A stretch of 64,000 nucleotides of DNA from an uncultured Gammaproteobacteria bacterium (GTDB taxonomy: Bacteria > Patescibacteriota > Patescibacteriia > UBA9934 > GWF2-40-263). The notes beneath the pieces were generated by a model. It saw only the letters and a program-made list of their open reading frames with translations. It had not been told where the DNA came from and did no database searches. Shown here in pieces: positions 4,386 through 64,000 of this stretch (within the stretch, counting starts at the first letter, position 1; each line of letters begins with the position of its first letter). Location of the stretch: assembly GCA_964399675.1 (NCBI GenBank), contig CAYNRK010000004.1, positions 12,715-76,714 on the forward strand, in the 5' to 3' direction. The translations under genes were made by a program, and so were the position numbers.

Positions 4386-4410
4386 TAAGTTATGATAAAC
4401 TCTACCTTGT

Positions 4411-20032: not shown

Positions 20033-20066
20033 AAACAGACATGATAATTTTTTTTGGGGGACTCAT

Positions 20067-20142
20067 GCCACCGTAGCTCAGCTGGTAGAGCAATACTTTC
20101 GTAAAGTAGAGGTCAGCGGTTCGACTCCGCTCGGTGGCTCCA
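20067..20142 (+). tRNA. tRNA-Thr (anticodon CGT)
   Basis: Manual cloverleaf. Loop TTCGTAA, T-arm GGTTCGACTCC, encoded CCA. Confidence 0.85.
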
Positions 20143-20158
20143 GAAAGGATCATCTGTG

Positions 20159-20232
20159 GCGGATGTAGTTCAATGGTAGAATGTAAGCTTCCCAAGCTTG
20201 AGGCGGGGGTTCGATTCCCCTCATCCGCTCCA
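20159..20232 (+). tRNA. tRNA-Gly (anticodon CCC)
   Basis: Manual cloverleaf. Loop TTCCCAA, T-arm GGGGGTTCGATTCCCCT, encoded CCA. Confidence 0.85.
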
Positions 20233-20312
20233 AGGGGTCTTTTTTTGTTTGTAAACAGAAAACCCCCGCAGTCCAAGTCGGACTTTGGGGGCAGGGGGAG
20301 AAGTGGTTGTGG

Positions 20313-21620: not shown

Positions 21621-21824
21621 GTTTCCACCTTTGTGGATGACCGGCCATCGGCCTACCTTTTACGCTCGCGCGTCCGTTTGTCATTGCTGAAAATGACATT
21701 CGGAGGTCAAGATCTCTAAACAATTCAATCAGGTTGGCGCCTAATCAAACAGAGAAACAATATACCAGAAAATTAGGCTTTTGTCAACAGTTCTCGTATG
21801 GTAAAATGAATAAGCTTTTGGAAT

Positions 21825-39315: not shown

Positions 39316-40207
39316 AAAAATTTATTGAAAATTCGATTATTTTTTTGGCAATGTCTTTGCCGGTAACTTCCTCCAAGGCTTTAAATCCAGGATTGGCATT
39401 TACTTCCAAAACAAGCGGTCCACTTTCAGATCTAATAAGATCAACTCCTGCAATTTCAAGGTTAACTGATTTTGCAACTTTTACTGCAAGTTGTTTTTCC
39501 TGATCTGATAATTCAATTTCTTTTCCTGTTCCACCTGTTGAAGTGTTTGCTCTAATGTCTCCAGAAGACGCTGATCGTTCCATTGCGGCAATTACTTTAT
39601 TTCCAATCACAAACGCACGCACATCTTTTCTTTCTGCCTCTTTGACAAATCGTTGAACAATAATTGGATTGTGATCTCGGATTGCTAAGTATTCAGCAAT
39701 TGGCTGAAAAGTCTCTTTGTCTGGCGCATAAAATACACCCTTACCATGAGTTCCAAATGCAATTTTGATAATCACAGGAAAACCAAGTTGATTTGCAAAC
39801 ACTAAAGCTTGTTCAGGATTTTTTGTGATTGCTGATTCAGGATGAGGAATGTCATTATTTTGAAAATGTAGTAATTGTCTAATTTTGTTTTTTGATAAAC
39901 CAAGATGATGCTTGCTGTTTATCAATTTAAATCCAGATTGATTTAAATAATGAATCGGATGCATGTGCAAGCTTGGCTCTTCAATAAAGTTTGGTCTTGG
40001 AAGAATTACATCAAGTTTTGGAAGTGGTTTTCCATCATAAAGATAACCCCCCCTAACCCCCCCTTGAAAGGGGGGGGAACAAAACAAAAAGTTTGGTTCG
40101 TACAATCGAACTGTTTCATGTCCAAGCTCTTTTGCAGCTTCTTCAAGTCGATCAACACTTGAATATTGCTCCCAGGATTGTTTTGAAATAAGAATTCCAA
40201 TTTTCAT
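39314..40207 (-). CDS. RimK-family ATP-grasp ligase (alpha-L-glutamate ligase-like)
   Basis: ATP-grasp C-terminal half (..AGVDLIRSESGPLVLEVNANPGF..). Contains an in-frame family-C element (..[12 protein letters not shown]..). The track N-terminus 40208..40321 is read-through of a family-A repeat. Confidence 0.7.
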   Translation of the reverse strand: MKIGILISKQSWEQYSSVDRLEEAAKELGHETVRLYEPNFLFCSPPFQGGVRGGYLYDGKPLPKLDVILPRPNFIEEPSLHMHPIHYLNQSGFKLINSKHHLGLSKNKIRQLLHFQNNDIPHPESAITKNPEQALVFANQLGFPVIIKIAFGTHGKGVFYAPDKETFQPIAEYLAIRDHNPIIVQRFVKEAERKDVRAFVIGNKVIAAMERSASSGDIRANTSTGGTGKEIELSDQEKQLAVKVAKSVNLEIAGVDLIRSESGPLVLEVNANPGFKALEEVTGKDIAKKIIEFSINF

Positions 40208-42637: not shown

Positions 42638-44005
42638 ATGTTGCTTTCTTTTCATGGGGCGGCGCGGGGGGTAACCGGATCTTGTCATTTATTAAAATTA
42701 AAAGACGCTGATGGCAAAGATCATCAGCTTCTTTTTGATTGTGGAATGTTTCAAGGCGAAAATTTGTGTGGATCAAAAAACTTGGAAGACTTTGGTTTTG
42801 ATCCAAAACAAGTTGATGCGTTATTTATCACACACCCTCATGTGGATCACACCGGACGAATACCAAAGTTGGTCAAGGAAGGTTTTTCCGGTTCGATTTA
42901 TATGACGCATCCGTGCCATGGATTATCAAAGCTTGTTTTGGAAGATGCGTATCATATTATGACAGAAGATGCTGAAAAGTGTGGAAGTTCTGTTTTGTAT
43001 GAATTGAAAGATTTAATGAAATCATTTGAACAAATAAAAACAGTTTCATATCACGAGCAGGTGGATGTTGCTCCAGGTGTTAGTATCATGTTCCATGATG
43101 CAGGGCATGTGTTAGGCTCCTCGTTTATTTCTGTTGAAGCAGAAGGTAAGCGTGTTGTTTTTTCAGGTGATATTGGAAACGACAATGTGCCAATATTGCC
43201 GGACACAGAGGCCCTTTCAAAAGCTGATGTTGTTATTTGTGAAGCAACATATGGACATAGAGTTCATGAGGAAAGGTCTGAGAGGTCAAAAAAGCTGAAA
43301 GAGGCTTTGGAGGAAACAATAAAAAATAAATCGGTTTTGATGATTCCGGCTTTTTCAATTGAGCGAACCCAAGAATTGTTATACGAGATTGACAGGATTC
43401 TTTTGAATGAACTTAAAACAAAGATTCCGATTTTTCTTGATAGTCCAATGGCAATAAAGGCTACTCAGCTTTATCGAGATTTTAAACAGTTTTTACAATT
43501 TGATGTTTCAATTTTAAGCGAACCGGATCGGGACTTTTTTACTTTTAAGAATCTGCGTGAGACTCTTTCAAGAGATGAATCAAAAGAGATTAACTATACA
43601 AAACCACCAAAGGTTATTATTGCCGGCTCTGGCATGATGTCTGGGGGACGAATTATGCATCATTTGATTCGTTATCTTCCTGATTCAAAAAATCAAGTTT
43701 TGATTATTGGTTTTCAGGCCAAAGGAACACTTGGGCGAAAGATTTTTGAGGGAGAAAAAAAGGTGCACATATTTCGAGAGGAGGTTGAAGTAAAAGCAAA
43801 GGTGTCAGCCATTGGCGCGTTTTCAGCGCATGGTGACATGAACAAACTTACAAAATGGCTTAAGCCGGAAGATGGGAAAGTGCCTGAACAGATTTTCCTT
43901 GTGCATGGGGATCCTGAAGCAAAAGAATTATTTGCAACTCATCTAAGACACAAATTACGAACTGACGTGATTGTGCCCGGGTATCATAGCGAACACGAAA
44001 TTTAA
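42638..44005 (+). CDS. beta-CASP metallo-beta-lactamase family ribonuclease (RNase J / CPSF-like)
   Basis: HxHxDH (ITHPHVDHTG) plus beta-CASP motifs. Length about 455 aa. Confidence 0.7.
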   Translation: MLLSFHGAARGVTGSCHLLKLKDADGKDHQLLFDCGMFQGENLCGSKNLEDFGFDPKQVDALFITHPHVDHTGRIPKLVKEGFSGSIYMTHPCHGLSKLVLEDAYHIMTEDAEKCGSSVLYELKDLMKSFEQIKTVSYHEQVDVAPGVSIMFHDAGHVLGSSFISVEAEGKRVVFSGDIGNDNVPILPDTEALSKADVVICEATYGHRVHEERSERSKKLKEALEETIKNKSVLMIPAFSIERTQELLYEIDRILLNELKTKIPIFLDSPMAIKATQLYRDFKQFLQFDVSILSEPDRDFFTFKNLRETLSRDESKEINYTKPPKVIIAGSGMMSGGRIMHHLIRYLPDSKNQVLIIGFQAKGTLGRKIFEGEKKVHIFREEVEVKAKVSAIGAFSAHGDMNKLTKWLKPEDGKVPEQIFLVHGDPEAKELFATHLRHKLRTDVIVPGYHSEHEI

Positions 44006-44032
44006 AACACCCGCCTTGAGCGGGTGTTTTTG
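44006..44032 (+). terminator. rho-independent terminator
   Basis: cacccgc-cttga-gcgggtg followed by TTTTT. Confidence 0.75.
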
Positions 44033-44130
44033 TCACCCCCCTCTTTTTGCGTCTTTGCGAGCCCCCTTTCGCGGAAAGGGGCGAAGCCCGTCCGAACGGC
44101 CGCAAGGCCGGGCGGGCAATCTCCGTTGAG
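44033..44130. repeat. GC-rich family-A variant (gcgtctttgcgagccccctttcgcggaaaggggcgaagcccgtccgaacgg..)
   Basis: Module 1 plus a cccctttcgcggaaagggg hairpin. Confidence 0.6.
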
Positions 44131-44245
44131 AACTATGTAGGACAGTCACGTTGTATAATTTCGGCAGACTCGCTTCGCTCGTGCTGGCGAAATTATACAA
44201 TATACCTGTTGATGGCGTCCTGGAGGTTCGTTGGAGGATTGTGGG
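44131..44245 (+). repeat. family-B repeat (about 110 bp), copy 1
   Basis: gacagtcacgttgtataatttcggcag..ctggcgaaattatacaa..cctgttgatgg..ttcgttggaggattgtg. Near-identical to 45412..45530 and 56521..56635. Confidence 0.85.
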
Positions 44246-44462
44246 GGACAGTCATGTTGTTTCACATGCACACAGGAAAAATTTTCTTGCTGCGGAACTC
44301 GTGCTCTTTGTTGTTTATTTTAAAGGTAAGCACTCAGACAGTCCTCGCTGCAAAAATTTTCCCTGTGTGCATGTGAAACAAATCCGAGGGCATTATTAAA
44401 TAGAAAAACCGCCAGAGCTTTCAGTGAAAGATGGCGATCTGATTGCTTGCTGAGTTCGTGGC

Positions 44463-45296
44463 CTAGGCCGCGAGCGGGAAGCGGTCGTGAAGGAGCTTCA
44501 TGGCGTTGAGCCCGATGAGTGCGGCTTCTTCGTCGCCGGTGACCTCGAACGTGTTGGTCTGGCGATTGCCGTAGATGGCGTTGACCGAGCCGGCCCAGTA
44601 GCCGCCATGGGTCATGCACCAGACGTAGATCGTTGCCGACTCCATGGAGTAGAGCAATACACCGCGTTGGGTCAGCTCGTCGTGGAGCATTTGCAAGCGC
44701 GGAGGGATGTAGCCCATGTCGTCCGGTCGTGCCTGGCCTTCGTTGAAGCACGTGGTTGTTGCCTCAATGCCGACGTGGTGCGGCAGGCTGAGAGTCTCGG
44801 CAGCCTCGATGAGCGCAGCGATCACTCGGTGGTCAGCGAATGCAGGATACTCGATCGGCGCCCAGTTGGTGCTGGCGCCATCCAGTCGAACAGCCCCGCT
44901 TGCGATGGCTGATTCACCGACGTTCGGCTCTCTCTGGAGCGTGGAGCATGAGCCCACACGGATAAAGCGCTCTGCTCCCGAACGCACTGCCTCGGGCAGC
45001 ACAATGCCCGTGGATGCGCTGCCCATGCCGGTTGTGACCACAGACATGGGAACGCCCTGGAATTCGCCGGTGAAGCTCCTGAGCCCCCGGTGATCACCGA
45101 CCTTGATCGCCCCGGGACCGAAGAAGCGGCTCACCAACTCCTCAGCATCCTTGATCGGATCTGTTCCGGCGATCAGCTCTGCCCGTTCGGGTGAGCCCAC
45201 CAACAGGCAGTGGGGCGCCAGATCGTGTGCGTCTGTGTGGAGATGGTATTGCTTGCCACCTGCAGAGGTTGGGGCGTCAGCCTTTCTATCGCTCAT
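44463..45296 (-). CDS. nucleoside phosphorylase, PNP/UDP family 1 (purine/uridine phosphorylase-like), GC-rich island
   Basis: ..HCLLVGSPERAELIAG.. N-terminal fold and ..TGMGSASTGIVLPE.. segment typical of PNP_UDP_1. Confidence 0.7.
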   Translation of the reverse strand: MSDRKADAPTSAGGKQYHLHTDAHDLAPHCLLVGSPERAELIAGTDPIKDAEELVSRFFGPGAIKVGDHRGLRSFTGEFQGVPMSVVTTGMGSASTGIVLPEAVRSGAERFIRVGSCSTLQREPNVGESAIASGAVRLDGASTNWAPIEYPAFADHRVIAALIEAAETLSLPHHVGIEATTTCFNEGQARPDDMGYIPPRLQMLHDELTQRGVLLYSMESATIYVWCMTHGGYWAGSVNAIYGNRQTNTFEVTGDEEAALIGLNAMKLLHDRFPLAA

Positions 45297-45411
45297 GAAA
45301 CCCTCCTGGTTTCGCAGAGGTTCAAAAACAAAAACCGTTCGTATATTTACAACGGTTTAAGTGTTCTGTCAACCATGTCGCTTTATACGAAGCAATCTCC
45401 GGGAGACTTTT

Positions 45412-45576: not shown

Positions 45577-47433
45577 ATGACCGATCAAAAGCAAATTCGG
45601 AATTTTTGCATTATTGCACACATTGATCATGGTAAGTCGACCCTTTCGGATCGGCTTCTTGAATTTACCGGCACAGTTGAAAAGAGAAAAATGCAAAATC
45701 AGATTTTGGATACAATGGAGCTGGAAAGGGAGAAAGGAATTACAATAAAGCTTGCGCCGGCAAGGATGGAGTATGACTACACACCAATAACCCCCCCTAA
45801 CCCCCCCTTGAAAAGGGGGGGAACTTACGTTCTCAATCTAATTGATACTCCGGGTCATGTTGATTTTAATTATGAAGTTTCTCGATCATTGGCAGCTGTT
45901 GAGGGCGCAATACTTTTAGTTGATGCAACTCAAGGTGTGCAAGCGCAAACCATTGCAAATCTTTTTTTGGCCATTGAAGAGGATTTAGAAATTATCCCTG
46001 TTCTTAATAAGATCGATCTTCCGGCAGCAGATGTTCCAGCACGAACAAAAGAAATTGTGAAACTTATTGGATGTGATCCAAAAGAGGTTTTGGCTGTAAG
46101 TGGAAAAACAGGCGAAGGTGTTGAAGCGCTTCTTGATGCAATTGTTAAGCGCATTCCAGCACCAAAAGGAAATACAGATGCGAATCCTCGAGCTTTGATT
46201 TTTGATTCTTTTTATGATGACTACCGTGGAGTCATGGCTTATATTCGCATGGTAGATGGTTTGCTTGAGAAAGGTTCAAAAATTGAAATGATTGGAACAA
46301 GTGCGCGCGCTGAAGTGTTGGAAATAGGGGCTGTTACTCCAAATGGACTAAAACCAAGTCCTGAATTTTCAACCGGGCAAATCGGTTATGTTGTCACAGG
46401 GCTTAAAGATATTTCCGCATGTCGAGTTGGTGATACTATAACTTCGGGAACCCCCCCTAACCCCCCCTTGAAAAGGGGGGGAACGTCACCGCTTCCGGGC
46501 TATAAAGATGTAAAGCCAATGGTTTTTGCTGGAATGTTTCCGCAAGAAGGTAATGACTTTCAAAAGTTAAGAGAAGCAATTGAAAGGCTAAAATTAAATG
46601 ATTCAGCGTTGATTTATGAACCAGAACACTCACCGGCGCTTGGTTATGGATTTCGGTGTGGGCTTTTGGGAATGTTGCATTTGGAGATTTTAAAAGAACG
46701 ACTTGAGCGTGAGTTTAATTTGGAACTTGTTGTTACTGTTCCATCAGTTGCGTATCAGGTTCATCAGCGTTCCAAAGAAATGATTATAATCAAGAGTCCG
46801 CTTGATCTTCCGGATCCGTCACATATTGATTTTATTGAAGAGCCATGGGTAAAATTAGATATTGTTACACCAACGGATTATGTTGGTGCTGTAATGCAGT
46901 TGGTGCAGGATAGGCGCGGTACTTACAAGAACACAGAATACCTTTCTGAGAATCGGGCGATTTTGCATTACGAGATTCCGCTTTCAATGATCATTGTTGA
47001 TTTTTACGATAAACTTAAAGGAGTAACAGCCGGATACGCATCAATGAATTATGAGGTCATTGATTATCGTGAAGCAAATGTTGTGCGTATGAATATTTTA
47101 GTGGCTGAGGATACTGTTGATGCGTTTGCTACACTTGTCTATCGAGATGAGGCGGATAAGGCTGGACGGAGAATTGTGAAGTCACTTAAAGAATCAATTC
47201 CGCGAGCAAACTTTGTAATCAAACTGCAAGCCGCTGTTGGTGGTAAGATTGTTGCAAGTGAAAGAATTTCCGCAGTTCGAAAAGACGTGACTGCAAATTT
47301 GTATGGAGGTGACGTAACACGGAAGCGCAAACTGCTTGAAAAGCAAAAGAAAGGAAAAGCTAAAATGCTAGCTCATGGAAAAGGAAAGGTAAATATTCCA
47401 ACGAATGCATATTTGAATGTTTTAAAAAGATAG
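45577..47433 (+). CDS. lepA: elongation factor 4
   Basis: FCIIAHIDHGKSTLSDRLL G1 motif and LepA-specific C-terminal domain. Two in-frame family-C insertions (PPNPPLKRGGT) at 45789..45825 and 46449..46485. Confidence 0.9.
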   Translation: MTDQKQIRNFCIIAHIDHGKSTLSDRLLEFTGTVEKRKMQNQILDTMELEREKGITIKLAPARMEYDYTPITPPNPPLKRGGTYVLNLIDTPGHVDFNYEVSRSLAAVEGAILLVDATQGVQAQTIANLFLAIEEDLEIIPVLNKIDLPAADVPARTKEIVKLIGCDPKEVLAVSGKTGEGVEALLDAIVKRIPAPKGNTDANPRALIFDSFYDDYRGVMAYIRMVDGLLEKGSKIEMIGTSARAEVLEIGAVTPNGLKPSPEFSTGQIGYVVTGLKDISACRVGDTITSGTPPNPPLKRGGTSPLPGYKDVKPMVFAGMFPQEGNDFQKLREAIERLKLNDSALIYEPEHSPALGYGFRCGLLGMLHLEILKERLEREFNLELVVTVPSVAYQVHQRSKEMIIIKSPLDLPDPSHIDFIEEPWVKLDIVTPTDYVGAVMQLVQDRRGTYKNTEYLSENRAILHYEIPLSMIIVDFYDKLKGVTAGYASMNYEVIDYREANVVRMNILVAEDTVDAFATLVYRDEADKAGRRIVKSLKESIPRANFVIKLQAAVGGKIVASERISAVRKDVTANLYGGDVTRKRKLLEKQKKGKAKMLAHGKGKVNIPTNAYLNVLKR

Positions 47434-47615: not shown

Positions 47616-49355
47616 ATGACAAAAAGAATGCAGTGGCGTGTTGCTGAGAAAATTTTAGAGGAAATCAAAAAACAGTTTCCGGAGATTGATCCGGCTGTTT
47701 TGCAATTATTGTTTAATCGCAACATTAAAACACAAGAAGAGATTGATGTTTATTTAAGTCCGGATTGGAGCCGAGACACTTTTTCACCTCATCTGTTTAA
47801 CAACATGAGTGAGGCGATCAAAAGAGTGTTTGATTCACTTGAGGCCGGTGATGTTATTACTGTTCATGGAGATTATGATGCAGACGGCGTATGCGCTTCG
47901 GCAATTCTAATATCAACACTTAAAGAAATTTGTCGAGAATTTGATTTTGATAAATTAAAAATCACTTCATATATTCCGCATCGCGAAAAAGAGGGTTATG
48001 GCATGTCTGTGGAAACGATTGAGCATCTTCATGAACACGACAAGACAAAACTTGTAATTGCTGTTGATTGCGGAATTAGCAACAAGCCGGCGGTTGATCG
48101 CGGAAAAGAACAGGGAATGGATACGATTATTTGTGATCACCACACAATGCCGGAAGAATTACCTGATCAAGCAATTCTGATTCATCCGTTGGTTCCAGGT
48201 GAAAAGTTTCCAAACAAGCATCTTTGTGGCACAAGTGTGGCGTTTAAGCTTGCAAGCGCTTTGTTGGATGAGGCGCGAACACGCGGGGCATCGTTTCCGG
48301 CGGGTTATGAAAAGTGGCTTTTAGATTTGGTTGCAATCGCAACTGTGACAGATGTTATGCCGCTAACAGGAGAGAATCGTGTGCTTGAAAAGTATGGTCT
48401 TTTGGTTTTGAATAAAACACGAAGAAAAGGCATTCAGAAACTTATTGATATTGCAGGTTCAAAAAAGGGCAAGCTTGATACTGTTTCGATTGGTTTCCAA
48501 CTTGGTCCTCGGATTAACGCAGCCGGAAGAATGACGCATGCCAATGAGGCGCTTGCGCTTATGGTTGAGGAAGATGATTTGCAAGCAACAAAGTTTGCAA
48601 TGCAATTGAATGATCGAAATAAAGAACGACAAGCAGCTTCTCAACAAATGTATTTGCAAGCAAAAAAACTTGTAAAAGACCCTGGCGATCAAAAGTTGTT
48701 GATTGTGTGTCAACAAGGTTGGCCAGCAGGGCTTGTGGGTTTGGTTGCCGGAAAGCTTGTGAATGAGTTTCATGTACCAACGTTTGTTGTTGGACAAGAT
48801 GGTGAAAAATTTGTTGGCTCAGGTAGGAGTATTAAAGGATTTGATATTACAAAGGCCATGCATGCAGCATCGGAACATCTTGATCGATTTGGTGGACATC
48901 CGGAAGCGTGCGGCTTTTCAACCACTGGTCAGGATCGATTTGAAAAAGCAAAAAGTGTAATGCTTGAATATGCTCAAACACAGATTAAAGATGAAATGCT
49001 TTTGCCAATCCTAAATATTGACGCAGAAATTGATTTTAAAGATGTTACATGGGATTTGCAAAAAGAGCTTGAAAAGTTTGAGCCATTTGGTAAGGGGAAT
49101 CCGCAGCCGATTTTTGCCAGCAAACAAGTTGAGGTTGTAGACAAAAGATATGTTGGGGCTGATGGAAAACATTTACGACTGACGGTTCGTTCACCGCGTG
49201 GTACCATAATGAAAATGATTGGGTTTCGATTTGGTGAAATGTTTGATCAACTCGAAATCGGAAAACCAATAGACGTTGCTTATGAGATTGGTGTTAATGA
49301 GTGGAATGGTAATAGGGAATTGCAATTAAAGATTGTGGATATTAAATTGAGGTAG
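47616..49355 (+). CDS. recJ: single-stranded-DNA-specific exonuclease
   Basis: DHH motifs (VHGDYDADGVCA; CDHH), DHHA1 and an OB-fold C-terminus. Track start 47514 is repeat read-through. Confidence 0.85.
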   Translation: MTKRMQWRVAEKILEEIKKQFPEIDPAVLQLLFNRNIKTQEEIDVYLSPDWSRDTFSPHLFNNMSEAIKRVFDSLEAGDVITVHGDYDADGVCASAILISTLKEICREFDFDKLKITSYIPHREKEGYGMSVETIEHLHEHDKTKLVIAVDCGISNKPAVDRGKEQGMDTIICDHHTMPEELPDQAILIHPLVPGEKFPNKHLCGTSVAFKLASALLDEARTRGASFPAGYEKWLLDLVAIATVTDVMPLTGENRVLEKYGLLVLNKTRRKGIQKLIDIAGSKKGKLDTVSIGFQLGPRINAAGRMTHANEALALMVEEDDLQATKFAMQLNDRNKERQAASQQMYLQAKKLVKDPGDQKLLIVCQQGWPAGLVGLVAGKLVNEFHVPTFVVGQDGEKFVGSGRSIKGFDITKAMHAASEHLDRFGGHPEACGFSTTGQDRFEKAKSVMLEYAQTQIKDEMLLPILNIDAEIDFKDVTWDLQKELEKFEPFGKGNPQPIFASKQVEVVDKRYVGADGKHLRLTVRSPRGTIMKMIGFRFGEMFDQLEIGKPIDVAYEIGVNEWNGNRELQLKIVDIKLR

Positions 49356-49378
49356 ATACCGAACGTCCCCCTTTTCAA

Positions 49379-49475
49379 GAAATACTAACCACCCCTAACC
49401 CCTCCTTGAAAAGGAGGGGAATAATGCATGTCGGTTGAAAGTTCTCCCCCTTTTTAAGGGGGAGTTAGAGGGGGT
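49379..49475. repeat. family-C palindromic element (aaccacccctaacccctccttgaaaaggaggggaa) plus second hairpin tctccccctttttaagggggag
   Basis: Direct repeat of 49852..49892. The same core sits in frame inside lepA, ligA, pilD and the RimK-like gene. Confidence 0.85.
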
Positions 49476-49488
49476 TATGATTTTGGAT

Positions 49489-49848
49489 ATGTATAACGAA
49501 CTTTTCAATAAAAAAGAAAAGAAAACTTTCAGACAAAAATTACGAACTGATCCAACAGCAGCAGAAAAACAGTTGTGGCCACATCTGCAAGGTAGACAAA
49601 TAGAAGGATTGAAGTTTCGGCGTCAGCATGGAATCGGAAAGTATGTCGTCGATTTCTATTGTCCTGAAATCAAACTTATTATAGAGGTTGATGGTGATTC
49701 ACATTTTGAACCTGGAGCTCAAGAAAAAGATGTTGAACGAGAGAGAAGTCTTATTAATAGTGGTTTTCGAGTTTTGCGCTTTACCGATCGTGACATTTTT
49801 GATTCGATGGAAGATGTGATTGAAATTATAAAATCAAATTTATACTAG
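49489..49848 (+). CDS. DUF559 / Vsr-like (PD-(D/E)xK fold) endonuclease-domain protein, copy 1
   Basis: ..KFRRQHGIGKYVVDFYCPEIKLIIEVDGDSH..RVLRF.. pattern of the very-short-patch-repair-like DUF559 family. Start set after the repeat-derived 18 codons. Confidence 0.7.
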   Translation: MYNELFNKKEKKTFRQKLRTDPTAAEKQLWPHLQGRQIEGLKFRRQHGIGKYVVDFYCPEIKLIIEVDGDSHFEPGAQEKDVERERSLINSGFRVLRFTDRDIFDSMEDVIEIIKSNLY

Positions 49849-49851
49849 AAA

Positions 49852-49892
49852 TACTAACCACCCCTAACCCCTCCTTGAAAAGGAGGGGAACT
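49852..49892. repeat. family-C palindromic element
   Basis: gaaatactaaccacccctaacccctccttgaaaaggaggggaa. Confidence 0.85.
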
Positions 49893-51963: not shown

Positions 51964-52734
51964 ATGACACTCTTCATACTTTTTCTTTTAGGAATTTGTG
52001 TGGGGAGTTTTTTAAATGTTGCGATTTTTAGAGCGCATGAAGACGAGAAGTTGCGTGGGCGTTCAAAGTGCATGAAATGTGAGATTCCAATCGGTGCTAA
52101 AGATTTGGTGCCGGTTTTAAGCTACTTGTTGCTAAAAGGTAGGTGTAGAAATTGCAAACAAGTTTTCTCATGGCAATACCCAGCAGTTGAGCTTGCAACC
52201 GGATTGCTTTTTATAATTCCCCCCCTTATCAAGGGGGGGTTAGGGGGGGTTAGCTTTGATTTATTGCCGATCCTAATCCGCGACTGGGTTTTCATTTCTT
52301 TTCTAATAATCATTTTTGTTTACGATCTAAAGCACATGTTGATTTTGGATCGTTTTACAATTCCAGCAATGATATTTGCTTTGATCGCAAACCTTTGGAT
52401 TGGAATCATTCCAGCATGGTTATTGTTGCTTGGGGCAGTTGTGTTAGCAGGATTTTTTTACATTCAGTTTTTGATTTCAAAAGGCAAATGGATTGGAGGG
52501 GGAGATATTCGACTTGGAGCACTCATGGGATTTATGCTTGGACTCCAGTATGGATTGGTTGCTTTGTTTTTAGGATATGTATTTGGTGCTGTGTTTGGTT
52601 TGATTTTGATGGCGCTTAATAAAGCCAATAAAAAAACAATGATTCCTTTGGGAACATTTTTAACCATTTCAACGCTCATAACTCTTTTTTACGGGCACAA
52701 CATTCTTGATTGGTATTTAGGGTTTTTCGTCTGA
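51964..52734 (+). CDS. pilD: prepilin peptidase (A24 family)
   Basis: N-terminal CxxC..CxxC zinc module (CMKC..CRNC) and a polytopic A24 domain. In-frame family-C insertion at 52218..52253 (..PPLIKGGLGGV..). Confidence 0.8.
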   Translation: MTLFILFLLGICVGSFLNVAIFRAHEDEKLRGRSKCMKCEIPIGAKDLVPVLSYLLLKGRCRNCKQVFSWQYPAVELATGLLFIIPPLIKGGLGGVSFDLLPILIRDWVFISFLIIIFVYDLKHMLILDRFTIPAMIFALIANLWIGIIPAWLLLLGAVVLAGFFYIQFLISKGKWIGGGDIRLGALMGFMLGLQYGLVALFLGYVFGAVFGLILMALNKANKKTMIPLGTFLTISTLITLFYGHNILDWYLGFFV

Positions 52735-52740
52735 TACTGA

Positions 52741-52890
52741 ATGTCCCCCTTTTCAAGGGGGACTACAGGGGGTTAGCATTTCATAAGCATAACCACCCCT
52801 AACCCCTCCTTGAAAAGGAGGGGAATAATGCATGTCGGTTGAAAGTTCTCCCCCTTTTTAAGGGGGAGTTAGAGGGGGTTAGCATTTTGA
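52741..52890. repeat. family-C element cluster (gtcccccttttcaagggggac; aaccacccctaacccctccttgaaaaggaggggaa; tctccccctttttaagggggag)
   Basis: Paralogous to 49379..49475. Confidence 0.85.
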
Positions 52891-52892
52891 AT

Positions 52893-53252
52893 ATGTATAA
52901 CGAACTATTTAATAAAAAAGACAAGAAAACTTTTAGACAAAAATTACGTACTGATCCAACAGCAGCAGAAAAGTTGTTATGGTTGCATTTGCAGGGTAAG
53001 CAAATGGAAGGATTAAAGTTTCGGCGGCAGCACGGAATCGGAAAGTATGTCGTTGATTTCCATTGTCCTAAAATTAAACTTGTTATTGAGGTTGATGGTG
53101 ATTCGCATTTTGAATCAGGAGCTCAGCAAAAAGATTCCGAACGAGAGCAATATCTAATCAACAAAGGTCTTCGAGTTTTACGGTTTACTGATCGTGACAT
53201 TTTTGATTCGATGGAGGACGTTGTTGAAATTATTCAATCAAACTTATACTAA
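52893..53252 (+). CDS. DUF559 / Vsr-like endonuclease-domain protein, copy 2
   Basis: About 90% identical to copy 1 at protein level (alignment by eye). Confidence 0.7.
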   Translation: MYNELFNKKDKKTFRQKLRTDPTAAEKLLWLHLQGKQMEGLKFRRQHGIGKYVVDFHCPKIKLVIEVDGDSHFESGAQQKDSEREQYLINKGLRVLRFTDRDIFDSMEDVVEIIQSNLY

Positions 53253-53285
53253 CCACCCCTAACCCCTCCTTGAAAAGGAGGGGAA
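53245..53285. repeat. family-C palindromic element
   Basis: tactaaccacccctaacccctccttgaaaaggaggggaa. Confidence 0.85.
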
Positions 53286-53456
53286 GAATGCGAGATCTTC
53301 AATCAACTATTGACATTTTAGTCTTTTTTTGTTAATTTATTTTTCTCTTTGCCACAGTGTTTAGTGCACCAACTTGATGCCTTAAACGTTGTGGCAAAGG
53401 GCGCTGCTTGCGCATATCGCGTAGGAGTTTGTTGGTTGCCATGGCAAAGGAACACA

Positions 53457-54044
53457 ATGGCTGCAAGTATTGGTCAGGCATTGGAGCTCATGACAAAGCT
53501 CGCAACAGCAGTCCCGTGGGGCGAGCTGGACAAACAGTTCGTTCAAGGTCTCATCGCTGACCCAGAGATCGGTTCTGAGTTCGTCTACTTCCTTCGAAAC
53601 TGGGGCGGGTCGGTCGTCGGTGAGCAGATCATCGACCTCGAAGTCAATCCGTTCATTCCGGATGGTTCTGAGATCTGCCCCAAGGACCAGATCGACAGCA
53701 GCGTTTGCGGCAAGTTCATCTTCGACCCCGATCAGATCGAGCTACATCTCGATTCGGGTCAGGAAGACGAGGAGTCGATCCAAGGCTATGACCTGCGCAG
53801 AGCCCTTGAGGGTCAGCCGGTTTTGCCCGCACATGTTCTCGACTTCCTGCTCGAGAACCCGCACTTCATCCCGGAGAGCTGGGAGGACAAGGGGGTGTTC
53901 TTCTGGGGCACCATCTACCGCTGCTCGGGCGGCAGCCTGTATGTCCGTTGCCTCCGCTGGCGCGGTGCTAGGTGGTGCTGGCGCTACGGCTGGCTTGGCG
54001 ATCACTGGGGCTCCGACGATCCTGCTGCGGTTTCCGCAAGCTAG
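53457..54044 (+). CDS. hypothetical protein (GC-rich island)
   Basis: ORF in a roughly 60% GC block. Preceded by TTGACA-like promoter elements and a 5' hairpin ctttgccacag..ctgtggcaaag. Confidence 0.45.
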   Translation: MAASIGQALELMTKLATAVPWGELDKQFVQGLIADPEIGSEFVYFLRNWGGSVVGEQIIDLEVNPFIPDGSEICPKDQIDSSVCGKFIFDPDQIELHLDSGQEDEESIQGYDLRRALEGQPVLPAHVLDFLLENPHFIPESWEDKGVFFWGTIYRCSGGSLYVRCLRWRGARWCWRYGWLGDHWGSDDPAAVSAS

Positions 54045-54184
54045 GATCTGGGAATCTGGAGCTCTGGTTACTAAGCTCTTTGAACTCTTGACTCCTAGCT
54101 CTCAACGGCCAATCACACTCGTGAACGGTCGTTTTTCAATTTAATTATTGATTTTTAAATTATCGAAAAACTTTTTAGAAAAAA

Positions 54185-54323: not shown

Positions 54324-56348
<2,025 letters not shown>

Positions 56349-59602: not shown

Positions 59603-60358
59603 ATGGAAAAAGCACATAAAATATCTGAGAAGACACTCGATGCAATTGGGCTTAAGAAAAAAGACATCGATGTCTATACAGCGCTTGTAAAGCTTGGAAC
59701 AGCTCCGCTTCGCAAAATTGCTGATGAAAGCGGTCTGAATCGTGGAACAACTTACGACACAATTAAACATCTAATGCACCTGGGTCTTGTAAGTTATGTT
59801 GATGCAAAAACGCATCGTTACTTTTCAGCAGAGGATCCGCGTAAACTTACAGGTGTTGCAACGCGTAAGGAAGTCGCACTCGAACAAGCTCGCGAGGATC
59901 TTAAAAAAGCGATTCCGCATTTTCAGGAACTTCTAGGCTGGAGTAAACATCGACCAACTGTTCGATACTACGAAGGCGAGACAGGTGTGCATGATATCCT
60001 GCAAGACGTTTTGGATGTATGTGATAAATCCAAGTCTCGGACTTTCAATGTGTATTCCTCTGCTGGCATCCGTGATCTGATTGCAAACGCTTGGCCTGGA
60101 TTTGTAAAAAGACGTATTAGAATGAAAGTGCACTGTAACGCGATTGCTATTGGTGAAGGAGGTAGAACAGCAGGACTTGACGAGCGCAAGTGGTTAAGTC
60201 AAGATCATCGCGCTCCAACTTACATCTTTGTTTATCCAGGAAAGACAGCATACGTTTCTATTGACGAAAAAAGACAACTGTTTGGAGTGATAATTGACGA
60301 CAAAGCAATTGCTTCAACGCAAAAAATGATATTTGAATCCCTTTGGGAGCATCTTTAA
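59603..60358 (+). CDS. TrmB-like winged-helix transcriptional regulator
   Basis: N-terminal ..LGLKKKDIDVYTALVKLGTAPLRKIADESGLNRGTTYDTIKHL.. wHTH. C-terminal TrmB-like effector-domain length. Confidence 0.55.
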   Translation: MEKAHKISEKTLDAIGLKKKDIDVYTALVKLGTAPLRKIADESGLNRGTTYDTIKHLMHLGLVSYVDAKTHRYFSAEDPRKLTGVATRKEVALEQAREDLKKAIPHFQELLGWSKHRPTVRYYEGETGVHDILQDVLDVCDKSKSRTFNVYSSAGIRDLIANAWPGFVKRRIRMKVHCNAIAIGEGGRTAGLDERKWLSQDHRAPTYIFVYPGKTAYVSIDEKRQLFGVIIDDKAIASTQKMIFESLWEHL

Positions 60359-60464
60359 ATCCCGCGCTCTAGGCGCGCGCCTTGGGTGCTGGAAATTTGT
60401 GAAGAGATGTGGCGAGTGGTATGACCAAGAGTCATCCGACTTGCCGCAACCTCTTCAGAAATTT

Positions 60465-60545
60465 CTCATGTCATCCCGAGCGAGCGCAGCGAGCCGAGGG
60501 ATCTCGCATATCCGAGATTTCTCCACTCGCTGCGCTCGGTCGAAA
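60465..60545. repeat. family-A palindromic element
   Basis: gtcatcccgagcgagcgcagcgagccgagggatctcgcatatccgagatttctcc..tcgaaatgac. Confidence 0.8.
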
Positions 60546-60563
60546 TGACAAGGAAGTAAGGAG

Positions 60564-61124
60564 GTGCGAATGCACAACTCGGTTGTTGCCATGTTCTGTG
60601 GCCCGCACGAGGACGGAAGGCCTACCTCCCGTCGCATCAACGCAGCGATCCAGACGGCCATGGGTCTGAAGGCACCGTTGATGATCGCCGGGGACGCGAA
60701 CGATGGCAAGGACCTGGAGTTGTTTGCCGGTCGCGCACACCGCCGTTCTCCCGCCCTGGATGTTGTCAAGCTCTACGACGAGCGCGCCAACACGCTCGCT
60801 GACGTCCAGATTCTCATCGAAGAGCTTCGCGAGCACAGGCATCGCGGAGTCACCACGATCTACCTGGTCACGGACTGGTGGCACATGCCCCGTTCGTTCG
60901 TGATGCTCGCCCTGGAGCTTCAGAACTTGATGCCAGAGCGTCGCTTTGACATCCAGATCGTGAACGTGCGGTGTCCTGAGCCGCCTCATGAAGAGCTTCT
61001 CGGAGAGCGGCAGGGAATCATGCACTACCTTGCTGGCACTTACGGCAGCCACGAGCTCACACGAAAGCCGTACGGAAAGCCAGCACAGGAACGTGCACTC
61101 GCGGCTCCTGTAGCCGCGAACTAA
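60564..61124 (+). CDS. DUF218 (YdcF/SanA-like) domain protein, GC-rich island
   Basis: ..IYLVTDWWHMPRSFVML.. matches the conserved DUF218 core. Strong SD aggaggt. Confidence 0.6.
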   Translation: MRMHNSVVAMFCGPHEDGRPTSRRINAAIQTAMGLKAPLMIAGDANDGKDLELFAGRAHRRSPALDVVKLYDERANTLADVQILIEELREHRHRGVTTIYLVTDWWHMPRSFVMLALELQNLMPERRFDIQIVNVRCPEPPHEELLGERQGIMHYLAGTYGSHELTRKPYGKPAQERALAAPVAAN

Positions 61125-61179
61125 AGAGCGCCAGACCATCTACTCGGTCCAGCGCTCATTTCTTTTTATTATTTTGCGT

Positions 61180-61262
61180 CTTTGCGAGAAAGCCCGTCAG
61201 ACGGGCTGACGAAGCAATCCCCGTAACAACGGAGATTGCTTCACCCCCACTTTTTTCAGAAG
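61180..61262. repeat. family-A palindromic element
   Basis: gcgtctttgcgagaaagcccgtcagacgggctgacgaagcaatccccgt..acggagattgcttc..cgcaacgacgca. Confidence 0.8.
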
Positions 61263-61286
61263 TGGGGGTTCGCAACGACGCAATGA

Positions 61287-61658
61287 TTACCTAAACAAAT
61301 TACCCCAAAATCCTTTTTTAGATTTACTGTCAGTTGTATCTTGGGAGTCGTTTGCAGGTTTTAGATTTTTAATAAATTGCGCAAGTCGTTCCATCTCTTT
61401 TTCAACAAGCACACCTTCATATTCGCCGCCATGTGCGCTTGTGCCTTCGTATGTTGCTGCCTTTTGATCTAAGTGTAGATTTATTTGCATTCCATTATCT
61501 CGATCTTCAACGTATGCGTGATAGCGAGGAAATCGTTCAGATGCCACACGTTTAACATAACTGATTTGTCCTTGCCGAGTGCGCTGTTCACCATAACCAA
61601 GACGTCTTAAGATGTTGCGCGAATGGTCAGCAAGCGGCCCTGAAAAAAATTGTTTCAT
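61287..61658 (-). CDS. hypothetical protein, paralogue A (..FPRYHAYV..INLHLDQ..YEG..EMERL..)
   Basis: Tandem paralogue of 61765..62166 (shared motif string). Family not recognised. Confidence 0.45.
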   Translation of the reverse strand: MKQFFSGPLADHSRNILRRLGYGEQRTRQGQISYVKRVASERFPRYHAYVEDRDNGMQINLHLDQKAATYEGTSAHGGEYEGVLVEKEMERLAQFIKNLKPANDSQDTTDSKSKKGFWGNLFR

Positions 61659-61664
61659 ATCTGT

Positions 61665-61750
61665 TATCCTGCGTCATTGCGAGGAGGCCGAAGGCCGACG
61701 AAGCAATCTCCGTACACGGGGATTGCTTCGGTCGCAAAGCTCCCTCGCAA
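61665..61750. repeat. family-A palindromic element
   Basis: gtcattgcgaggaggccgaaggccgacgaagcaatctccgtacacggggattgcttcggtcgcaaagctccctcgcaaagacgc. Confidence 0.8.
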
Positions 61751-61764
61751 AGACGCAGAGGCAA

Positions 61765-62166
61765 TTATGATTTGAAAATAAGGTCAAAGAGATTTTTTTT
61801 GCGCTTTGGTTTTTCTGTTGCCGGATTGTTAAGTGAGTGTTTTGGTTGATTAACTTTTTTGCCACCGCGAGCTCCACTAATAATTCCGATTAAGCGATTC
61901 ATTTCTGTTCGAACCCGTCCACCTTCATATGCCCATTCATGCTGATGATTACCTGAATGGTCAAGATTTAGTTGGTCAATATGAAGATCGATTTCCATGC
62001 CTTGATTATTGGTTGTGACGTATGCGTGAAATCGTGGAAAAGGCTCGTTACTTATTTGCCGATGATAGCACGGTTTACCATCCTCTGTGCAATGAAAAAC
62101 ATAGCCAGCGTTTTGCATAAGTTTATCCGGTCGATCTAAAAGCGGTCCTGGGATAAGAGTTTTCAT
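61765..62166 (-). CDS. hypothetical protein, paralogue B (..FPRFHAYV..IDLHIDQ..YEG..EMNRL..)
   Basis: See paralogue A. Confidence 0.45.
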   Translation of the reverse strand: MKTLIPGPLLDRPDKLMQNAGYVFHCTEDGKPCYHRQISNEPFPRFHAYVTTNNQGMEIDLHIDQLNLDHSGNHQHEWAYEGGRVRTEMNRLIGIISGARGGKKVNQPKHSLNNPATEKPKRKKNLFDLIFKS

Positions 62167-62244
62167 AAAACAACCTACTTCTATAGTAGGTCATTTTTTT
62201 GTTGCAAAGTCAAATGTTTTTATGTGAATAAAAGAAAGAGCATT

Positions 62245-62273
62245 GACAATTAGAACACTTTGTAGTATATTTT
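62245..62273 (+). promoter_or_regulatory. sigma70-like promoter TTGACA-17-TAGTAT upstream of the GC-rich lipoprotein gene
   Basis: Hexamers read directly. RBS aaggagg follows. Confidence 0.5.
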
Positions 62274-62308
62274 TTTCTTGTCAGAGTCTGGGGAACCAAG
62301 GAGGCACA

Positions 62309-62761
62309 ATGAGACTGCAAGGCATTCTGACACTGATCGCACTGCTTTTCCTGTCGGTGGTGGCTTGCAGACCGCCGCTCGAGTTCCTGCGTGGCGATGA
62401 TCACCTTTCCGATCAGAAAGAGTCCGAGCTCGATATGAGCCGTGCCGATCCGATCGTCAAGACAGTCGCCAAGATCTACAAGGGCAAGGAGGAGCTTCGA
62501 CAAGACGACATGGTCGATCTTTCCTGCGACGATCTCTACTTGCTCTGGCGAGCACTCTTCAGCAAGTACTTTCACTCAAACCTCGGCACCTGTCTGAAGG
62601 AGGGTGAGATCTGTTTGCGTCGGGAGGGTGTGGCCTGGATCGCAGAGGACGATCATGGTTTCAAGGACGACCCGCATACCATCAAGAGGTTCACCAAGGT
62701 CGACCGGAGCAATCGGCGTGCAATCGCCGCAATGAGATCTGAGAGTGGTTGTACTGACTAG
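62309..62761 (+). CDS. hypothetical lipoprotein (GC-rich island)
   Basis: Signal peptide with lipobox ..SVVAC. About 60% GC. Confidence 0.5.
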   Translation: MRLQGILTLIALLFLSVVACRPPLEFLRGDDHLSDQKESELDMSRADPIVKTVAKIYKGKEELRQDDMVDLSCDDLYLLWRALFSKYFHSNLGTCLKEGEICLRREGVAWIAEDDHGFKDDPHTIKRFTKVDRSNRRAIAAMRSESGCTD

Positions 62762-62898
62762 GGCATCACATGGCCCCAGGAACACGATCTGATCGCTTTC
62801 ACACTAGCTGCCCACTGGGCGGCTCTTTCGTTTGACAAAAATAGGCTTTTGGTGTAGGGTATTCACTCGGAAAAAGATGAACCGAGAGGAGGAAAACG

Positions 62899-63684
62899 AT
62901 GAGAAATCGTACGAGCACTGCGGCGAGCTGGATGGCAATCGCCATCGTGTTCGCCTTCTCCGTTCCCATGGTCGCAACAGCTGAGGAATCCGACACCGAA
63001 GCCGGAGCCGAAGGCGAAGGTGAGGGCGAAGGTGAGGGCGAGGACGGAGCCGAACCCGCCGAGGTGGTCTTGACAGGGGGAGGAACGGACGACGTCGTTC
63101 TGTCGAACACCGGCGGTGGTGGCAAGAAGGCCAAGAAGAAGGTCAAGAAGGGCAAGTGCGCTGACGGGAGCGACTGCGACTGTCGGAAGGCGGTCAGAGT
63201 CGCGCTCAAGGAAGCACGCGACGGATTCAAGAAGGCCAAGAAGAAGGCCAAGAAGGCCGCTGGAGAGCAGCAAGAGGCAGCCATCAGGGCTGCGGTCGAG
63301 AAGGCCGAGACAGCACTTCGCGCAGAGCTTCACAAGGGCGAAGAGGAGCGAGCCGAGGAAAAGGTCAAGAGGGCTCTCGCAGGCAGGCGTTCAGAGTTCC
63401 ACCTGGAGTGGATCCTCGAGGGCATGTTCGCGGGAACCGAGCTCACAGACCACGTGCTCGCCGAGCTGGATTGTGCACAACTGGGCATGCTCAAGATCAT
63501 GCCGCGTGCACGTCACGGATATGTCCCGGAAGACATGGAAGTGCGCAGGAAGCTCCTTGCTCAGGAGTGGTACAAGCCGAATCCTGCAGTCGACGACGCA
63601 GCTCTGCCCAGCCGCATGACCTCGGCGGATCAGCTCAACGAGCTCCGGATCAACAAGGCGCTCACTGCCAAGGAATGCGAGTAG
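62899..63684 (+). CDS. secreted protein with acidic (EGEG)n and Lys-rich regions and C-terminal YARHG-like domain (GC-rich island)
   Basis: Signal peptide. C-terminal ..[28 protein letters not shown].. matches the YARHG motif. SD gagaggagg. Confidence 0.55.
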
Positions 63685-63779
63685 TACAACAACTACCCGC
63701 AAGTCCACCACGACCGCTCAGCAATGGGCGGTTTTCAAATTGAAAAAAAAGTTTGAATGTTGTATATTCCGATGGTTGT

Positions 63780-63867
63780 GGTGAGGTGGCCGAGTGGTCG
63801 AAGGCGCACGCTTGGAAAGCGTGTAAACCGAAAGGTTTCCAGGGTTCGAATCCCTGTCTCACCGCCA
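63780..63867 (+). tRNA. tRNA-Ser (anticodon GGA)
   Basis: Type II tRNA with long variable arm. Loop CTTGGAAAG, T-arm GGGTTCGAATCCCTG, CCA. Confidence 0.85.
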
Positions 63868-63887
63868 TACTTATTAAATATTTTTTT

Positions 63888-64000
63888 ATGAAAAGCCTAG
63901 AAGGAACTCAAACCGAGAAAAATTTATTAAAATCTTTTGCCGGGGAATCACAAGCAAGAATGAGATATGATTATTTTTCCAAACAAGCGAAAAAAGACGG
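63888..64000 (+). CDS. rubrerythrin (5' partial, runs off window)
   Basis: [38 protein letters not shown] is the rubrerythrin N-terminal diiron-helix signature. Confidence 0.7.

Follow-up and report, generated by a model that had tools for sequence, protein, structure and literature searches.

The window analysed here is a stretch of 64,000 nucleotides (nt) of contig CAYNRK010000004.1 (assembly GCA_964399675.1, positions 12,715 to 76,714 of the forward strand). It contains two cassettes, in each of which inverted copies of a 35-nt repeat enclose a small DUF559 gene. Cassette 1 is found between the genes for RecJ and RNase H, and cassette 2 directly follows pilD. An earlier reading, made from the sequence alone, had placed a second DUF559 cassette at 52741-53285 and had noted that pilD itself carries the element. 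Both observations were confirmed; the ends of the cassette are at 52733 and 53285, and the copy in pilD (52218-52252) is in frame and represents an insertion when compared with a 63 % identical orthologue. The DUF559 genes are predicted to encode a nuclease and, by analogy with the repetitive extragenic palindromic (REP) repeats and their RAYT genes, this resident nuclease and its cognate repeats may form a partnership in which the repeats are cleaved, a proposal that we regard as evenly poised.

The features of the two cassettes and the solo copies of the repeat are as follows (coordinates are those of the window).

52733-52778, minus strand: left edge of cassette 2, GATACTGAATG, overlapping the PilD stop codon
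52744-52778, minus strand: outer repeat of cassette 2, hairpin GTCCCCC-TTTTCAA-GGGGGAC with third arm TACAGGGGGTTAGC
52790-52824, plus strand: plus-orientation repeat of cassette 2, TAACCACCCCTAA followed by CCCCTCC-TTGAAAA-GGAGGGG
52847-52881, minus strand: gene-proximal repeat and left terminal inverted repeat of cassette 2, TCTCCCCC-TTTTTAA-GGGGGAG with TTAGAGGGGGTTA, third arm toward the gene
52893-53252, plus strand: DUF559 gene, copy 2, 119 aa, predicted Vsr-like PD-(D/E)XK nuclease (Pfam PF04480)
53250-53285, plus strand: right terminal inverted repeat of cassette 2, whose first three bases, TAA, serve as the gene's stop codon
49355-49420, no strand assigned: left part of cassette 1, consisting of the edge GATACCGAACG, a half hairpin TCCCCCTTTTCAAG (49366-49379), AAATAC and a plus-orientation repeat (49386-49420)
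49443-49477, minus strand: gene-proximal repeat (left inverted repeat) of cassette 1, from the repeat scan
49477-49848, plus strand: DUF559 gene, copy 1, 123 or 119 aa with the start at the ATG of 49477 or 49489, respectively
49855-49890, plus strand: right inverted repeat of cassette 1, with the RNase H start codon 13 nt further on
52218-52252, minus strand: solo repeat in PilD, in frame, coding for PPLIKGGLGGV
45788-45822, plus strand: first solo repeat in LepA, in frame, 11-residue peptide
46448-46482, plus strand: second solo repeat in LepA, in frame, 11-residue peptide
54814-54848, plus strand: solo repeat in LigA, in frame, 11-residue peptide
40044-40078, plus strand: solo repeat in a RimK-like ATP-grasp gene (itself on the minus strand), in frame, 12-residue peptide

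Structure of the cassettes, their repeats and their product

Pairwise alignment, together with a repeat finder, showed that the two cassettes are homologous over 49355-49890 and 52733-53285. The homology begins with GATACYGAAYG, whose first one or two bases are the end of the stop codon of the preceding gene (the RecJ TAG ending at 49355 and the PilD TGA ending at 52734), and its right end is GGAGGGGAA in both cases. The left edge of cassette 2 (52733-52778), where a hairpin is predicted in the DNA fold, matches 49355-49379 of cassette 1 with 92 % identity over 25 nt in the repeat finder. As both ends are common to cassettes 1 and 2, the finding that would have spoken for a simple gene duplication with coincidental repeats, namely ends that differ between the copies, was not made. 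The 92-nt block upstream of the genes (49386-49477 and 52790-52881) and the 36-nt 3' element are each 100 % identical in the two cassettes. The open reading frames (ORFs) share 85 % of their nucleotides and the proteins are 86 % identical, which is lower than the ~90 % estimated from the sequence alone. In the alignment, cassette 1 is 32 nt short in the outermost element and carries 9 additional nt (TAGAAATAC) ahead of the 3' element. The junction CCCCCTTTTCAAG/AAATACTAACCACCCC of cassette 1 is seen again at a third paralogue (locus L095, see below). Cassette 2 and its flanks were recovered, with 99.5-100 % identity, in independent assemblies from other samples and cassette 2 is therefore not an assembly artefact; cassette 1 was present in one other assembly only (L001).

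The repeat consists of TAACCNCCCCTAA and, after it, the hairpin CCCCNCC-TTGAAAA-GGNGGGG, so that a third C-rich block stands in front of the hairpin; read in the opposite orientation, TTA and a second G block come after the hairpin. The cassettes had been described as palindrome-flanked. Flanking repeats are indeed present, but they are three-block motifs of the BoxC/triplex motif (TM) type, with the gene between inverted copies, and not simple palindromes. The three blocks were identified, as TCCCCCCC-TTTTCAA-GGGGGGG-TTA-GGGGGGG and variants of it, by comparison with the consensus and with Table 1 of PMC4666352. When up to three mismatches were allowed, the core pattern gave 13 matches on both strands, corresponding to nine element positions in the 64 kb, compared with 0.01 expected from shuffles. 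The scan located the full 35-nt element at 11 positions, and the repeat finder added a twelfth (52744-52778) and the half copy at 49366-49379. All 12 full copies and the half copy fall at 40-55 kb of the window. The predicted hairpin energies, which cover the hairpin part of the predicted triplex/quadruplex, are -9.7 to -10.7 kcal/mol.

To the left of each DUF559 gene is a minus-orientation copy and to its right a plus-orientation one, with the third-strand arms pointing inward. These inverted repeats are imperfect (28/35 positions), and the reverse complement of 52847-52881 likewise agrees with the plus-orientation consensus at 28 of 35 positions. Further upstream is another minus-orientation copy, of which cassette 2 has the whole and cassette 1 half. 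The whole copy (52744-52778) and the plus-orientation repeat at 52790-52824 form a doublet with inward-facing arms ('arms-in') and no gene between them, and 52790-52824 together with 52847-52881 makes up the 92-nt module, which is predicted to fold into an outer stem around two hairpins (z = -3.5).

The five solo copies all lie inside genes (RimK-like, LepA twice, PilD and LigA), in frame and free of stop codons, and all within 14.8 kb around the two DUF559 genes (p ~0.01 by our own estimate). LepA is 618 aa long, compared with 596 aa for a 77 % identical orthologue, and both gaps in the alignment coincide with the repeats. The PilD and LigA repeats are likewise insertions when aligned with orthologues. 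In metagenomes, 83 exact copies of the repeat were found in 80 contigs, and the 33-mer AACCACCCCTAACCCCTCCTTGAAAAGGAGGGG of the right-hand repeat was unaltered in 55 of 83 hits in unrelated contigs. Eight of the 83 exact copies adjoin a DUF559 homologue and the others are solo, several of them in frame within genes for TsaD, QueA, a GT4 glycosyltransferase or PilD.

Two of the in-gene copies have counterparts elsewhere. The PilD copy is a variant of the C7 subtype (CCCCCCC blocks) with the loop TTATCAA, TTCCCCCCCTTATCAAGGGGGGGTTAGGGGGGG, and codes for PPLIKGGLGGV at an inter-domain loop (52218-52252). The same variant is at the equivalent loop of two metagenome PilDs (L156 and L174) that are 39 % identical to the window PilD, and these two were the only matches to the TTATCAA-loop variant in the metagenome scan; the 63 % identical PilD orthologue (L090) is without the insert. 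The nucleotides of these inserts are kept even at synonymous sites, the flanks being unrelated, and this could reflect recurrent site-specific insertion or selection on the DNA or RNA. The LigA loop that contains 54814-54848 carries decayed repeats of other subtypes, ACCCCTCCCAACCTCCCCTTTGAAAGGGAAGG and ACCCCCTCATACTCCCCCTTGGCAGGTGGAGG, in two other Uhrbacteria genera (L090 at ~9850-9900 and L092 at ~8700-8760). Either an old insertion has followed each genome's own subtype or insertion has occurred repeatedly at one spot. A 24-bp difference in the LigA gene of L004 was considered as an empty repeat site and rejected, as its position is different and L004 looks chimeric over its first 61 nt.

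Copies 1 and 2 both belong to DUF559 (PF04480), with E values of 1.1e-32 and 5e-32 and scores of 112.6 and 110.4 bits (cut-off 20.6). The closest solved structure by sequence is 3HRL, a DUF559 protein of Neisseria gonorrhoeae (E 4.5e-17). An AlphaFold model built from 66 homologues, with a predicted local distance difference test score (pLDDT) of 85, was compared with known structures using Foldseek. The matches were 3HRL (E 1e-7, target-normalised template-modelling score 0.87), 3R3P, which is the catalytic domain of the homing endonuclease I-Bth0305I (E 2e-4, score 0.65-0.78), and Vsr, 1CW0 (E 2e-2), and the predicted structure has the restriction-endonuclease-like fold of 3HRL and Vsr. The 13 residues that are invariant among the 66 homologues (E26, W30, F43, R44, R45, Q46, G48, D55, E66, D68, G69, H72 and R97) are all found in both copies; they include the core D55, E66, D68 and H72 and the FRRQ motif. 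The copies are thus predicted to encode a nuclease with an intact core, and the genes are under purifying selection (see below). With the model for Escherichia coli YcjD, NF007294 (E 4e-19), the copies scored 69 and 66 bits. These scores are below the equivalog cut-off of 218, and the proteins are therefore relatives of YcjD, not orthologues.

The DUF559 family as a whole comprises 24,630 clusters at 50 % identity (E <= 1e-3). In a representative library, two or three DUF559 stretches occur within predicted proteins of 260-380 aa (P0241, P0244, P0245 and P0324), which may be either genuine fusions or tandem units translated as a single ORF. Membership in a defence system was considered and rejected. 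The only PADLOC matches were weak and at the domain level (DpdF, a methyl-directed restriction enzyme and a homing endonuclease), which is explained by the common nuclease fold.

The repeat-gene-repeat unit in other bacteria

The surroundings of 80 DUF559 genes were examined. These are the closest homologues in GTDB species genomes (41-55 % identity), picked by similarity to the window protein, and 169 other ORFs in the same 80 loci served as the control set. The hosts are Uhrbacteria and other members of the candidate phyla radiation (CPR), cyanobacteria, gamma- and deltaproteobacteria, Nitrospirae, Planctomycetota, Ignavibacteria, Omnitrophota and others. In nearly all of the loci the flanking hairpin has the form CCCCNCC-TTnnnAA-GGNGGGG. 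Hairpin density per locus is 5-7.5 per kb up to 150 nt from the gene and 0.04-0.24 beyond 1 kb. A hairpin was found within 150 nt of either end for 74 of the 80 DUF559 genes compared with 14 of the 169 control ORFs (Fisher 3e-41), and at both ends for 56/80 and 2/169, respectively. Merging loci with shared flanking genes left 58 independent sites, 52 with a hairpin at either end. The arrangement is also polar, with the G arm of the nearest upstream hairpin on the gene side in 54/65 loci and the C arm of the nearest downstream hairpin on the gene side in 51/67. More distant homologues, in Synechococcus PCC 7002 (pAQ6), Deinococcus (between paaD and paaZ) and Azospirillum, are flanked similarly. 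Within this clade, the conserved, polar repeat-gene-repeat unit is general across phyla.

In 23 Microcoleus-type genomes the unit is at a single orthologous site. The repeat-gene-repeat block is conserved there (mean identity 0.84-0.94), and the surrounding DNA is rich in indels and varies in its extra repeat copies. Downstream of the conserved unit, the Microcoleus-type loci (L022-L082, e.g. L029 at 4390-4700) carry a tandem unit of ~30 nt, CCCCTTGCTAAGGGGGGGAGTAAGAGTTAG, whose copy number varies by species. Plasmid or phage carriage was rejected as a route of spread, since close homologues are scarce on plasmids (33/72,556) and phages (2/50,697), and most of those few are on megaplasmids or chromids.

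The consensus of the E. coli repeats, TM_ECO, is CCCTCNCCC-N3-6-GGGNGAGGG-N3-GGGNGAGGG, with 23 copies in MG1655, and the motif is known from >260 genomes and is plentiful in cyanobacteria and enterobacteria (PMC4666352). TM repeats adopt a stable triplex in vitro, they stall polymerase, and they occur at hypervariable loci; in published tests the E. coli elements had neither promoter nor terminator activity (PMC4666352). The same E. coli sequence has been described as the HPGQ G-quadruplex-hairpin switch (PMC5100583). TM_ECO number 9 (1351239-1351204) lies ~170 nt downstream of ycjD (1351407-1351760), the annotated DUF559 gene of E. coli K-12, and a degenerate repeat overlaps the ycjD stop codon. 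The chance of this proximity is ~0.002 (our own estimate, with 18 repeat sites in 4.6 Mb). Judged by their published positions, four of the five TM_ECO doublets of E. coli have the arms-in layout, with gaps of 16-27 nt, as in the DUF559 flanks but without the gene. In this locus (L094, 1351204-1351760), the DNA between ycjD and TM_ECO number 9 has a partial duplicate of the last ~50 nt of ycjD, followed by a degenerate repeat. ycjD was found in 3377 of 5426 complete E. coli genomes, the others matching the repeat part of the query only, and in some phylogroups it takes the place of the eefRABCD operon (PMC12817139).

Holder et al. (2015) reported TM repeats as unassociated with mobile elements or with any gene class, and found no function for them (PMC4666352). 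We found no literature linking DUF559 to BoxC/TM repeats, in a search whose coverage left out most subscription journals. The parts are already known, but their partnership appears to be unreported. The tight polar association across phyla makes each a candidate partner for the other, and DUF559 a testable candidate enzyme. Two old questions become experiments in E. coli, namely whether YcjD binds or cuts TM_ECO and whether ycjD affects the instability of TM loci.

Age and origin of the unit

The organism is Uhrbacteria-like, with best PilM matches of 65-67 % identity. Three related Uhrbacteria keep the gene order LepA-RecJ-RNaseH-PilM-pilin-PilD-x-LigA-GatC-GatA-Lgt, and in these three there is no DUF559 gene or repeat between RecJ and RNase H, where the genes overlap or are separated by 57 nt, nor after PilD. 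Both cassettes were therefore inserted in this lineage. The two ORFs differ at 15 % of bases, with dS 0.69, dN 0.079 and dN/dS 0.115 (synonymous and non-synonymous divergence and their ratio), whereas strains from different samples differ by <0.5 %. A third paralogue, at locus L095 in the same metagenomes, shows 73-77 % amino acid identity and dS 1.5-1.8 and has the same kinds of repeat arrays. Among the three paralogues dN/dS is 0.08-0.12 and dS is 0.7-1.8, and the genome has at least three DUF559 units, old paralogues under purifying selection in the intergenic spacers of conserved operons. The closest paralogue of copy 1 is copy 2 and vice versa, consistent with a local origin. Of the recent local transposition or duplication suggested by the sequence-only reading, insertion therefore stands and a local origin fits, but the event was not recent and transposition finds no support. 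We conclude with moderate confidence that cassette 2 is an old paralogous unit and not the product of a fresh transposition.

The flanks are more alike than the genes, with no mismatches in 128 nt (92-nt module and 36-nt 3' repeat; P ~6e-10 at the ORF divergence). However, the 33-mer is also unchanged in unrelated contigs, so that this identity points to constraint or gene conversion and not to youth. Part of it reflects constraint, and part must stem from conversion between the two nearby cassettes, since these also agree in the 22-nt spacer, which is different at L095. A target-site duplication, also sought at the cassette ends, was not found; the flanks TTGAGGTAG/CTTTCC and CGTCTGA/GAATGCG share nothing convincing, and short GAAYG matches recur internally at L095 and so belong to an extended repeat consensus. 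A profile scan (Pfam) revealed no transposase domain. An insertion sequence or a transposon of the miniature inverted-repeat type was rejected on the same grounds, namely imperfect 35-nt inverted repeats (28/35), no direct repeat in the flanks and no transposase domain.

We propose that DUF559, mostly inherited vertically, would recognise and nick or cut its own flanking repeats. Repair or recombination at the breaks would keep the flanking repeats uniform and would seed further solo and doublet copies, preferentially nearby. Only harmless copies would survive, after stop codons or in frame in permissive loops, as in LepA, LigA, PilD and RimK. On a broader and more tentative reading, in which DUF559 proteins in general are the enzymes of these repeats (see the end of the text), cutting of three-block repeats by DUF559, and the ensuing repair, would generate, homogenise and disperse them. 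Such repair would also cause the reported instability of repeat loci and seed in-frame peptides in essential genes of streamlined CPR genomes.

Several points weigh against this proposal. Chief among them, as far as strict dependence on the nuclease is concerned, are two. E. coli genomes that are without ycjD keep the repeats, so that the repeats persist in its absence. The solo copies inside genes are of the C7 subtype and the gene-flanking copies have CCACCCC/CCCCTCC or TCCCCC blocks, and this split indicates two separate subfamilies. In addition, a minority of loci, e.g. Deinococcus, have the opposite polarity, and the 80 loci were selected by similarity, so that the claim covers this clade and not all 24,630 clusters. 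Binding or cutting of the repeats by DUF559 is a step that we infer, and to our knowledge PD-(D/E)XK nucleases do not insert DNA on their own. The arrival of a 35-nt copy at a new site is not explained by the model.

Among the alternatives, a homing-type selfish gene, in which a free-standing endonuclease cuts the centre of an empty arms-in doublet and repair copies the gene in, fares best, though we consider it unlikely. It would account for a gene that exactly fills the gap between inward-facing arms and for the gene-less doublets, both beside cassette 2 (52744-52824) and in E. coli (4/5 TM_ECO doublets), and it is in keeping with the likeness to the I-Bth0305I catalytic domain (Foldseek E 2e-4, score 0.65-0.78) and the weak PADLOC match to a homing endonuclease. 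The genome has three copies, and homologues are scattered across phyla, many of them, as repeats tend to be, on very short contigs. A homing gene is, however, hard to reconcile with one orthologous site in 23 Microcoleus-type genomes, with window paralogues as old as dS 0.7-1.8, with the scarcity of close homologues on plasmids and phages, or with the failure to find, among close strains, any site that is occupied in one and empty in another. The single Microcoleus site and the old paralogues favour a resident helper over homing, and the single-site block resembles vertically inherited RAYTs.

Somewhat more doubtful still is the possibility that the repeats spread by slippage, template switching or the action of an unrelated enzyme, with DUF559 as a Vsr-like repair nuclease that processes the hairpins, triplexes or quadruplexes they form and co-occurs with them by tolerance or co-transfer. 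The relationship of DUF559 to the repair enzyme Vsr and the persistence of repeats in E. coli without ycjD agree with this, as do the stable non-B structures that the repeats form in vitro, the stalling of polymerase by them and their presence at unstable loci (PMC4666352). It leaves unexplained, however, why the polarity is strictly inward, why the repeat supplies the stop codon and why hairpins are enriched ~100-fold exactly at the gene ends in many phyla.

That the hairpins are expression signals for DUF559 only (terminator, insulator, mRNA stabiliser or a means of sequestering the ribosome-binding sequence AAGGAGG), with the solo copies as look-alikes, is improbable. Identical copies of 33-35 nt lie in frame in LepA, LigA, PilD, RimK, TsaD and QueA, no T-run follows the hairpins, and neither promoters nor terminator-like sites around the cassettes exceeded the shuffle expectation; the published tests of the E. 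coli elements showed neither activity (PMC4666352). This is set against stems in which AAGGAGG is paired with CCTCCTT, hairpins on both sides of the gene, and genes that are co-oriented with their neighbours and have no detected promoter of their own. Finally, a plain segmental duplication with coincidental repeats would suit two mutually closest paralogues 3.4 kb apart, but it, like an assembly artefact, is scarcely credible given the shared ends, the empty sites in relatives, the same architecture in dozens of unrelated genomes and the several independent assemblies that contain cassette 2.

The DNA next to the cassettes has some features of its own. Islands of 600-800 bp with 55-69 % G+C (~40 % in the genome) directly follow cassette 2 (53300-54100) and the third paralogue (L095, 5400-6000), and the one in the window begins with a 26-nt inverted repeat (53347-53399). 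The islands are mutually dissimilar, have no Rfam match, and contain ORFs of 195-231 aa and 160-206 aa without a family match. The G+C-rich ORF after cassette 2 was rejected as cargo, as it has no Pfam, NCBIfam, PADLOC or Rfam match and is unlike the stretch after the third paralogue. Other G+C-rich islands (0.49-0.57 compared with ~0.40) are at 44000-45300, 20000-22000 and 60000-64000. At 44.4-45.3 kb, a minus-strand PNP_UDP_1 phosphorylase gene, probably horizontally acquired, is found amid plus-strand housekeeping genes, with a weak repeat-like hairpin, CCCCTTTCGCGGAAAGGGG (44063-44081), at the edge of this island. Two tRNA-Ser(TGA) genes (13428-13504 and 15706-15781) are 2.3 kb apart and have low Rfam scores, 32 and 40 bits compared with 54-72 for the other tRNAs.

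Comparison with known nucleases and repeat families

The DUF559 protein has the fold and the core motif D...E-x-D-G..H in common with Vsr, I-Bth0305I, 3HRL and YcjD. It differs in that the N-terminal Vsr extension is missing, and the gene lies outside any intron or intein. Nor did we notice a cytosine methyltransferase partner in those neighbouring genes that were examined.

Rickettsia palindromic elements (RPE) are 100-150 bp long, are known only from Rickettsia and have no known associated gene. The window repeats resemble RPE in that palindromic repeats lie in frame in housekeeping genes and add a short peptide in permissive loops, leaving the gene intact. In contrast, the window element is 35 nt, has an Uhrbacteria-like host and is unrelated in sequence, although it was set apart without aligning the RPE consensus. 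The locus nevertheless shows repeats colonising the coding sequence of essential genes in frame, as RPE do, and such copies matter for the annotation of CPR genomes and for odd proline/glycine-rich inserts in proteins.

The BoxC, PIT and TM repeats were first described in the 1990s. Like them, the window element consists of a C-block, a loop of 3-7 nt, a complementary G-block, a 3-nt loop that is usually TTA and a second G-block, is ~34-37 nt long and has many dispersed copies, frequently as inverted doublets. On these sequence features, it belongs to the BoxC/PIT/TM family of intrastrand-triplex repeats. The window form, CCCCCCC-TTTTCAA-GGGGGGG-TTA-GGGGGGG, has 7-nt C/G runs, whereas the blocks in E. 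coli are CCCTCNCCC. The E. coli repeats are 'always intergenic' (PMC4666352), unlike the five copies in frame inside genes of the window. We note that intergenic placement is a habit of the E. coli set and not a structural criterion.

A further parallel is with REP and REPIN sequences. These are dispersed short palindromic repeats, inverted copies of which stand on either side of the associated RAYT gene, for an HUH/Y1 transposase (PF01797), in a 'REPtron'. Here too, a small nuclease-type gene is found between inverted copies of a repeat that is dispersed in the genome, the repeats form doublets and the gene is largely vertical, as at the Microcoleus site. However, the window protein is PD-(D/E)XK and Vsr-like, its Pfam matches being of the DUF559 type only, and the repeats are of the three-block triplex type, are without a GTAG-type guide and enter coding regions. 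The DUF559 unit therefore resembles a REPtron in layout and is not a member of that group. More tentatively than for the window itself, and with the balance somewhat against it, we suggest that DUF559 proteins, including YcjD, may be the missing enzymes of the BoxC/PIT/TM repeats and may represent a second, independently evolved partnership of the REP/RAYT kind in most bacterial phyla.

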